Below, in pieces: positions 43,683 through 43,772 of a DNA stretch of 63,512 bases (position 1 is its first letter; every line of letters starts with the position of its first letter). Under the pieces are notes generated by a model. It saw only the letters and a list, made by a program, of their open reading frames with translations. It did not search any database and was not told the origin of the DNA. The DNA comes from a virus. The stretch is from positions 1 to 63,512 of the IMG/VR virus record IMGVR_UViG_3300024432_001127; one strand, written 5' to 3'. The position numbers and the translations under genes are program-made.

Positions 43683-43772
43683 AGGAACGCTGCCAGGGCT
43701 CGAACCTGGGACCCGCACTGCAATCGCATCTCGCAGCCTTCAAGCTGGGGCGGCGGAGCCTTCCCAGCGCTC
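43683..43772 (-). ncRNA. tRNA-like RNA of about 90 nt (Ser/UGA-like loop, aberrant D-arm; possible Y-RNA or vault-RNA-like module)
   Basis: A 9-bp terminal helix GGAGCGCTG/CAGCGTTCC is immediately followed by TTTTTTT. The T-arm is CCAGG-TTCGAGC-CCTGG. There is a CTTGAAG loop and an internal CTGGG/CCCAG helix. A canonical cloverleaf could not be completed by hand. Confidence 0.4.

Follow-up and report, generated by a model that had tools for sequence, protein, structure and literature searches.

A conserved, most probably non-decoding tRNA-like RNA in the replication gene region of a clade of uncultured phages

Mimicry of tRNA by phage non-coding RNAs is, to our knowledge, barely charted, the known cases being real tRNAs and the tRNA-like domains embedded in Y RNAs of the YrlA type. 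The Ro60-binding motif of YrlA is GNCGAAN0-1G, and its tRNA-like domain, which has been proposed to serve as an effector-binding module, undergoes, in a member with a 7-bp acceptor, cleavage by RNase P and CCA addition in vivo (Chen et al. 2014, PMC4201824). Here we analyze a viral DNA of 63,512 nucleotides (IMG/VR record IMGVR_UViG_3300024432_001127, positions 1 to 63,512; hereafter, the window) that encodes a Ro60 homolog containing TROVE and vWA domains (15506-17293, minus strand) and, about 26 kb from that gene, contains a minus-strand element of about 88-90 nt (43684-43773). A preliminary description of this element, with coordinates shifted by one base (43683-43772), considered it to be either an unusual type-II, Ser-like tRNA or a tRNA mimic, possibly a partner of Ro60. 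Comparison of 19 phage and metagenome variants identifies the element, with high confidence, as a conserved and structured tRNA-like RNA that does not decode. It belongs to a known kind, that of tRNA-like non-coding RNAs, and its architecture is new.

Relatives of the element were identified by using as the synteny anchor a 251-aa protein encoded upstream of it, around homologs of which 15 viral loci were retrieved (individual loci are denoted by L and a number). The loci with at least 64% protein identity to the anchor carry a homologous element in the same gap, excepting L008 (73% identity), where none was found by blastn or by a scan with the family pattern; the same gap holds a plain hairpin terminator in the distant loci L011-L014 and a genuine tRNA-Pro in the distant L015. 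A family-specific DNA pattern recovered the same 9 viral contigs along with 22 metagenome contigs, and exact-protein look-ups added three further variants, for a total of 19 distinct phage and metagenome variants with the element in the same gap downstream of the 251-aa gene. The family-specific 30-nt pattern produced no matches in 185,579 prokaryotic genomes, and matches to a looser T-arm pattern, all without the family 5' motif, came only from ordinary tRNA-Lys, Met, Arg and Asn genes and integration-type 3' fragments, so that an attP site or a fragment of a host tRNA was rejected as the identity of the element. As far as sampled, the family is restricted to one clade of uncultured phages; no description of it was found in the searched literature, and no Rfam family matches it either. 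The length of the element ranges from 81 to 92 nt among the homologs, with loop insertions and deletions of 1-2 nt; because of these 1-2 nt differences in length, the overlapping small open reading frames (ORFs) can be ruled out, that is, the element is not coding.

In the window, the element region on the minus strand reads GGAGCGCUGGGAAGGCUCCGCCGCCCCAGCUUGAAGGCUGCGAGAUGCGAUUGCAGUGCGGGUCCCAGGUUCGAGCCCUGGCAGCGUUCC, followed by UUUUUUU. The structure was derived by running RNAalifold on a plain MAFFT alignment, which, without any model, yielded an 8-bp terminal helix (P1), a GGN/NCC hairpin right after it, a CCRC/GYGG stem (P3) and a T-arm; two additional hairpins (P3a and P3b) were added by hand, and all members were then re-aligned with the resulting covariance model, R1. 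In this alignment of 19 sequences (A6), standard pairs are formed in 96.5% of the cells, an absolute figure that favors the structure because the alignment was fitted to the model, although P1, the D-like hairpin, P3 and the T-arm were found model-free as well. Two-sided changes occur in 15 of the 29 pairs, none of 500 shuffles matched the observed pairing and covariation, and pairing fell to 33-45% in a control where the partners were slid by 1-3 columns. The minimum free energy (MFE) fold of the single sequence is no more stable than those of shuffled sequences (z = -0.17), and the cloverleaf lies 0-12 kcal/mol above the MFE of each sequence; the support for the structure thus comes from the comparison between sequences and not from thermodynamics. 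The parts of the element, in the order of the RNA, are:

43765-43773, minus strand: 5' strand of the acceptor-like helix P1, GGAGCGCUG; the conserved 8 bp correspond to 43772-43765, and the pair 43773:43684 is specific to the window
43755-43764, minus strand: D-like hairpin GGA-AGGC-UCC, with a 3-bp stem and a 4-5 nt loop containing an invariant GG; found by RNAalifold
43754, minus strand: junction purine G, which covaries perfectly with the pyrimidine at 43710, just 5' of the T stem
43750-43753, minus strand: 5' strand of P3, CCGC, pairing with 43713-43716 to form a 4-bp stem in the place of the anticodon stem; found by RNAalifold
43734-43747, minus strand: hairpin P3a, CAGCU-UGAA-GGCUG, with a conserved stem and a hypervariable loop
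43719-43728, minus strand: hairpin or motif P3b, UGC-GAUU-GCA, with an invariant GC...GC core
43713-43716, minus strand: 3' strand of P3, GCGG, partner of 43750-43753
43710-43712, minus strand: 3-nt junction GUC, with nearly invariant G and U; C43710 covaries with G43754
43693-43709, minus strand: T-arm CCAGG-UUCGAGC-CCUGG, with a 5-bp stem and a 7-nt UUCRAGN loop
43684-43692, minus strand: 3' strand of P1, CAGCGUUCC; the conserved 8 nt correspond to 43692-43685, and CCA is not encoded

All 8 pairs of P1 are formed in each of the 19 variants, with two-sided changes in 4 of them. The 9-bp terminal helix of the preliminary description does form in the window (GGAGCGCTG, 43773-43765, with CAGCGTTCC, 43692-43684, including one G-U pair), but only 8 of its 9 pairs are conserved; the base that follows the 8-bp helix is C in 11 variants, U in 7 and G in 1. 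The D-like hairpin directly abuts P1, without the U8/N9 linker, and the third pair of its stem covaries (A-U in 7 variants, C-G in 6, U-A in 1, U-G in 1, unpaired in 3). In a scan of all column pairs, 43754:43710 emerged as G:C in 13 variants and A:U in 6, with zero exceptions; this covariation could reflect either an extension of P3 across a GU bulge or a Levitt-type tertiary pair. Stem P3 is paired in 98.6% of the cells and varies from C-G to U-A and among A-U, G-C and G-U. Within it, P3a shows two-sided changes in 4 of its 5 pairs and has a loop of 4-10 nt without conserved sequence, which therefore does not qualify as an anticodon loop. Of the helices, P3b is the weakest, with two invariant inner pairs and an outer pair formed in 12 of the 19 variants, and may be a sequence motif instead. 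Two interior features proposed previously have to be redrawn: what was taken for a CTTGAAG (UGA) loop is the CAGCU/GGCUG stem capped by the UGAA loop, and a CTGGG/CCCAG helix with a 13-nt loop can be drawn in the window only, the family keeping the GGN/NCC hairpin and the CCRC/GYGG stem instead. The T-arm had been correctly recognized (CCAGG-TTCGAGC-CCTGG, at 43709-43693); it is paired in 100% of the cells, with two-sided changes in 2 pairs, and conforms to CCNGG-UUCRAGN-CCNGG in 19 of 19 variants. The segment GYGGGUYCCNGGUUCRAGNCCNGG, encompassing the equivalents of the variable loop and the T-arm, is identical to that in ordinary bacterial tRNA-Lys, Met, Arg and Asn genes, which makes a tRNA origin of the element plausible.

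Covariation thus backs a tRNA-like RNA with a non-canonical interior that might mimic tRNA, as originally surmised. The reading as a Ser-like or other type-II tRNA is not supported. The T-arm is canonical, with a 5-bp stem, a T-psi-C type 7-nt loop (T54, T55, C56, A58) and G53:C61, and the D-like loop has the GG; the terminal helix, however, has 8 bp versus 7, the D stem has 3 bp, and P1 and the hairpin are not separated by a linker. In the 19 variants, there is no 5-bp anticodon stem with a 7-nt loop, the 4-bp stem forking into two hairpins in its place, and no variable arm of the type-II or Sec kind was seen, P3b lying inside P3 and not outside an anticodon stem. ARAGORN detected only tRNA-Met, Val and Thr in the window (33719-33948), and the tRNA model RF00005 had no match at E<=10 on 43550-43900 and none at E<=1 in 10 relatives; the only copy called by ARAGORN is that of L007, as tRNA-Leu(GAG), with a 7-nt loop forced onto a 5-nt one. 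ARAGORN found no transfer-messenger RNA (tmRNA) either, RF00023 scoring 13.8 bits versus a gathering score of 47, and the insert of about 45 nt contains no ORF. At gathering thresholds, Rfam has no match at the element, and a permissive local scan (E<=10, 43550-43900) gave only a weak mascRNA-type match over the T-arm (18 bits), the sub-threshold matches of the element and its relatives to RF01684 ranging from 18 to 30.6 bits versus a gathering score of 42.5. The preliminary description had listed the lack of a model hit among the findings that would refute it; no known model matches, and the element is nonetheless conserved and structured.

The element lies within a 191-nt intergenic gap (43651-43841; previously given as 190 nt) among genes for DNA replication:

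45631-48525, plus strand: DUF5906 primase gene
44634-45557, minus strand: ParB-like gene
43842-44597, minus strand: 251-aa gene, the synteny anchor, probably encoding an OB-fold single-stranded DNA-binding (SSB) protein
43782-43802, minus strand: promoter-like motif TTGACGATCACTTGGATAGAG; family consensus TTGAC[AG]ATC-N6-9-TAGAGAG
43677-43683, minus strand: U-tract directly 3' of P1, as originally described (TTTTTTT, 43683-43677); of the 10 nt that follow, 5 or more are T in all variants but L007 (18 of 19)
43126-43650, minus strand: 174-aa gene, the first of the helicase operon
41147-43129, minus strand: SNF2-type helicase gene, followed by protease and exonuclease genes

A blastn search with 43100-44700 against 50,697 phage records returned no match, and the window represents a phage without a close relative among deposited phages. 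Among the homologs of the 251-aa protein, P0116, P0119, P0122 and P0124 include some on contigs of 0.7-8.7 Mb or labeled Thermoguttaceae (Planctomycetota), a possible clue to the host range or to related prophages. The 174-aa protein has no Pfam, PHROG or PDB match, and its AlphaFold 2 model (pLDDT 42) is unusable; it was also tried and discarded as a synteny anchor, given that it has only 6 homologs and retrieved no loci in viral contigs.

The promoter-like motif is located 0-30 nt upstream of the element in essentially all variants. The window contains three copies of about 21 nt (TTGACRATC-N7-TAGAG), all on the minus strand: apart from the one at the element, copy 28261-28281 precedes the ribosome-binding site and ATG of a protein gene and copy 21153-21173 precedes a Y-RNA locus (see below), and the motif is also found ahead of protein genes in L190 and L192. 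From these placements we infer that the motif acts as a promoter, and it resembles the promoters of single-subunit RNA polymerases or alternative sigma factors; no sigma-70 promoter was called at the element, and the spacing of the motif is not that of sigma-70 promoters. The window also encodes a protein resembling sigma-70 region 2 (21145-21780). Upstream of the motif, there are three TTTTGACG repeats (43803-43841, minus strand) that are not conserved in the relatives. Downstream, only 34 nt separate the end of the element from the next start codon in the window, and 22-49 nt in the relatives; as this leaves no room for a separate promoter, transcription probably proceeds through the element, which would then be the 5' leader of the downstream gene. 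In the Shine-Dalgarno position of the 174-aa gene, 6-20 nt ahead of its start codon, a conserved CGTTTACAC motif is present in L001-L005, L025, L027, L034, L035, L038, L039, L042, L043, L187, L189 and L193, and GGAGG takes its place in the window.

The window contains a second tRNA-shaped unit, at the Y-RNA locus. On the minus strand, the order is the promoter-like motif (21153-21173), a mini tRNA-like module consisting of an acceptor and a T-arm only (21001-21045; GCGGG-UUCGAGU-CCCGC; RF01684, 25.9 bits) and a long bulged hairpin (20930-21000). The hairpin scores above the gathering score of RF01656, the model of nematode sbRNA, a Y-RNA homolog (38.6 bits), and bears GGGCCGAUG...GGUUAUC, a motif that also marks classical YrlA and Y hairpins in 19 other viral contigs. 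Segment 20930-21045 is likely to be a Y RNA of this phage, a much better candidate than the element; the hairpin is embedded in the block of Ro60 and MVP genes, about 3.6 kb upstream of the Ro60 start. The vault-like gene (18390-21035, minus strand; Pfam MVP_shoulder, 6.6e-24, and Vault_3), two genes upstream of Ro60, probably starts at an ATG near 20887 because the listed start at 21035 overlaps the Y-RNA locus. The pair of vault-like and Ro60 genes is also present in L190 and L191, and L192 and L047 encode Ro60 without a vault-like gene.

Comparable units recur in other members of this phage group. In L047 (IMGVR_UViG_3300031643_000003), a tRNA matched by RF00005 (5198-5321; 47.3 bits) has its anticodon arm replaced by a 64-nt insertion that holds a Y-RNA-type GGGCCGAAG..CGUUAUC strand; a Y-RNA-like hairpin abuts it at 5322-5405, and three further Y-type motifs (5695, 5772, 5850) precede Ro60. 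Mini modules of about 48 nt in L190 (2772-2819 and 5435-5484), L191 (3085-3132) and L192 (5428-5477) start at an ORF stop codon or a few bases from it and abut Y hairpins, an arrangement that looks like tRNA-type punctuation of a polycistronic transcript. The phage group repeatedly puts tRNA-shaped units at RNA boundaries, and model R1 matches the mini modules that precede Y hairpins at 20-25 bits. A common acceptor sequence in both tRNA-like RNAs of a phage, as would result from concerted evolution or a common target, was seen in the window, where the 5' strand of P1 is identical to that of the Y-linked module (GAGCGCUG), and in L005/L047; it failed in three added genomes (GAGCACUG vs GAACGCUG), and the idea was rejected. 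The element and Ro60 are found together on all five long contigs where this could be checked (the window and contigs of 113, 133, 83 and 44 kb); the two most divergent element-bearing contigs are not among the best 80 of 155 viral Ro60 loci. The window further encodes two ligases:

7667-8734, minus strand: RNA ligase (PF09414 and PHA02142 OB domain)
14015-15196, minus strand: second ATP-dependent ligase

Together with an AAA_28 kinase-like protein and metallophosphoesterases, these ligases make up an RNA-repair-like set on the minus strand (7667-8734, 14015-15196, 9218-9763, 29321-30388) that accompanies Ro60, the Y RNA and the three tRNA genes.

As the main mechanism we favor, with about even confidence, excision of the element from the leader of the replication-gene mRNA. 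The element keeps those parts of a tRNA that are read by processing and modification enzymes, namely, the acceptor-like helix (8 bp, of which 7 correspond to an acceptor and one is an additional terminal G:C), the T-arm and the D-like hairpin, the GG of which could dock on the T-loop to form an 'elbow'; the anticodon arm is replaced by the 4-bp stem forking into two small hairpins, with one of the loops free to evolve. Under the excision scenario, transcription would start from the promoter-like motif, making the element the 5' leader of the mRNA for the 174-aa protein and the SNF2 helicase; host RNase P would cleave at its 5' side and either RNase Z or RNase E within the U-rich tail, in the manner of operon-embedded tRNAs. 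The mRNA of the replication genes would thereby acquire its 5' end, and a tRNA mimic, stable and probably CCA-tailed, would be set free. The structural prerequisites for RNase P and RNase Z are in place: the acceptor and the T stem would form a coaxial stack (13 bp vs 12), and the T-loop and GG are present. The mini modules between an ORF stop and a Y hairpin in the window, L190, L191 and L192, and the tRNA of L047 that abuts a Y hairpin, follow the layout of RNase P/Z punctuation, and we count this placement as a precedent for excision in the same phages. Conservation of the additional parts of the element (GG hairpin, P3 and GC...GC motif) further suggests a tRNA-recognizing factor as a binding partner of the released RNA.

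Several considerations weigh against excision of the leader. Every enzymatic step, cleavage as well as CCA addition, is one that we infer, and the promoter function of the motif is itself presumed, its spacing not fitting sigma-70. Processing alone fails to explain the D-like hairpin, P3, the purine-pyrimidine pair and P3b, because an acceptor and a T-arm, as in the mini modules, presumably suffice for it. Mimicry of the three-dimensional shape of tRNA would be imperfect, and the choice of site by RNase P uncertain, because the U8/N9 linker is missing and the coaxial stack has 13 bp. Finally, the U-tract could terminate some transcripts, so that the element would be a stand-alone small RNA gene combined with an attenuator.

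A possible, clearly more tentative alternative, which is not mutually exclusive with leader excision, is that the dominant role of the released RNA is in trans, linked to the RNA-repair and Ro60/Y-RNA machinery of the phage or to counter-defense, as a decoy or scaffold on a protein that binds the tRNA body, without itself being an anticodon substrate; the candidate partners include a host toxin or nuclease that targets tRNAs, a tRNA-modifying enzyme, the RNA ligases of the phage and the effector of the Ro60-Y RNA complex. This role would account for the conserved parts in excess of a minimal RNase P/Z substrate (GG hairpin, P3, purine-pyrimidine pair and GC..GC) and is consistent with the presence in the phage of Ro60, Y-RNA-like hairpins and both RNA ligases (7667-8734 and 14015-15196), with the co-occurrence of Ro60 and the element on the five long contigs, and with the effector-binding function proposed for the tRNA-like domain of YrlA (PMC4201824). 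However, the partner is still only hypothetical, the element is located about 26 kb from Ro60, inside the replication module, and lacks the Ro60-binding motif, the hypervariable apical loop speaks against mimicry of a specific anticodon, and the co-occurrence may not be universal, considering the two most divergent contigs outside the best 80 of 155 Ro60 loci. Equally tentative is the broader conjecture that the family is a new class of non-decoding tRNA mimics of phages, in which a private branched domain stands for the anticodon arm, and which, after excision and CCA tailing, act in trans as decoys for host immune nucleases or toxins that target tRNAs or as tRNA-shaped adaptors for repair by Ro60/Y RNA and the RNA ligases.

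A main function in terminating or attenuating transcription appears unlikely for the element; in this reading, the G+C-rich terminal helix and the U-tract would end or modulate transcripts from the ParB-like and 251-aa genes or from its own promoter. A U-rich or pyrimidine-rich tail is present in 18 of the 19 variants, and in distant relatives the gap is occupied by a simple hairpin terminator. However, the terminal helix closes a four-way junction, and a terminator scan made no call, which speaks against a simple terminator; L007 has no U-tract, and termination is therefore not a strictly conserved property. The T-loop, the GG loop and the covarying inner helices are not needed for termination, and read-through is required because the downstream operon has no room for a promoter of its own.

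The proposal that the element is a Y RNA, a YrlA-type partner of the phage Ro60, now seems quite improbable. It draws on the presence of Ro60 in the window, on the tRNA-like domains contained in bacterial and phage Y RNAs (PMC4201824) and on the resemblance of the element to the Y-linked mini modules, both in the R1 scores (20-25 bits) and in the P1 strand GAGCGCUG shared in the window. Yet GNCGAAN0-1G is absent in 19 of 19 variants, and there is no bulged Ro-binding helix: the terminal helix of the element is a perfect duplex of 8-9 bp without a bulge. The models of YrlA (RF02553), Y_RNA (RF00019) and sbRNA (RF01656) have no match on 43550-43900 at E<=10; the topology is opposite to that of YrlA, with the termini of the element in the acceptor helix and not in a Ro-binding stem; the Ro60 gene is distant; the identity between P1 and the Y-linked module fails in other phages (GAGCACUG vs GAACGCUG); and a proper Y-RNA-like hairpin exists at 20930-21000.

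Very improbable, too, is an RNA associated with a replication origin, that is, a promoter-driven structured transcript that primes or opens the origin: the location amid genes for SSB-like, ParB-like, primase and helicase proteins, the promoter-like motif with a T-rich stretch downstream and the three TTTTGACG repeats upstream in the window would fit, but relatives do not conserve these repeats, the GC skew does not switch at this position, and priming does not explain the conservation of the tRNA-type T-loop and GG. Least credible and already largely refuted is a genuine tRNA that decodes but is unusual, whether Ser-like of type II, Sec-like (8/5) or interrupted in its anticodon arm by an insertion or intron, for which the 8 bp plus 5 bp stem count of bacterial tRNA-Sec, the canonical T-arm, the ARAGORN call in L007 and a YUUGA-like loop common to the nearest relatives of the window could be cited, and against which stand the lack of tRNA model matches in the window and 10 relatives, the 4-10 nt loop without U33 or a conserved anticodon, the enclosure of both inner hairpins by P3, which is seen in no tRNA class, the D stem of 3 bp versus 6 bp in tRNA-Sec, the absence of the UCA anticodon, and an apical loop that would be about 4 bp too far from the elbow for the decoding center.

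The family represents a third design of phage tRNA mimicry, next to Y-RNA-embedded domains and real tRNAs: the 'top half' of tRNA is under selection across many phages, and the decoding half is replaced. The genomes that host it also carry Ro60, Y-RNA hairpins fused to mini modules, RNA ligases and, sometimes, a vault-protein homolog, and thus offer a system for asking what purpose the tRNA-like domain serves in Y-type RNAs and whether phages process their operons and make small RNAs by tRNA-shaped punctuation. A practical warning is that tRNA finders and Rfam miss such elements.

Among the known systems, YrlA (RF02553; Chen et al. 2014, PMC4201824) is like the element in that it occurs in genomes that encode Ro60, including those of phages, has a conserved T-loop and mimics the acceptor, T and D arms of tRNA without an anticodon function; the cleavage by RNase P and CCA tailing of a YrlA member with a 7-bp acceptor parallel the processing that is only presumed for the element. 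The ends of YrlA, however, form the Ro60-binding stem with GNCGAAN0-1G, whereas those of the element pair in the acceptor helix, without the motif; the order of parts is T, acceptor-like stem-loop and D in YrlA, where the 'acceptor' is closed by a loop, and D, P3 and T in the element; and the gene of the element is 26 kb from Ro60 and has no RF02553 match. With tRNA-Sec (8/5) and the allo-tRNAs (8/4 and 9/3; Mukai et al., PMC5389517), the element, with its 8-bp helix and 5-bp T stem, shares a helix count other than 7/5, and its invariant extra terminal G:C is reminiscent of G-1:C73 in tRNA-His; unlike the element, all these tRNAs decode, with a 7-nt anticodon loop and the variable arm outside the anticodon stem, and the D stem of tRNA-Sec is 6 bp long and its anticodon is UCA, neither of which applies to the element. 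The tRNA-like domain of tmRNA similarly combines an acceptor, a T-arm and a reduced D element with a helix, P2, in place of the anticodon stem, but tmRNA has, between its two halves, pseudoknots and a tag reading frame, and it has the G3:U70 alanine identity pair, whereas the insert of the element is about 45 nt long and without an ORF. Finally, operon-embedded tRNAs, mascRNA at the 3' end of MALAT1 (RF01684) and the tRNA-like units of MHV68 TMERs are tRNA-shaped units within longer transcripts, in which recognition by RNase P and RNase Z frees a small stable RNA and sets the end of the neighboring RNA, as is proposed for the element; these processing modules are eukaryotic, viral-eukaryotic or real tRNAs, whereas the phage element has a branched lower domain and an 8-bp terminal helix.

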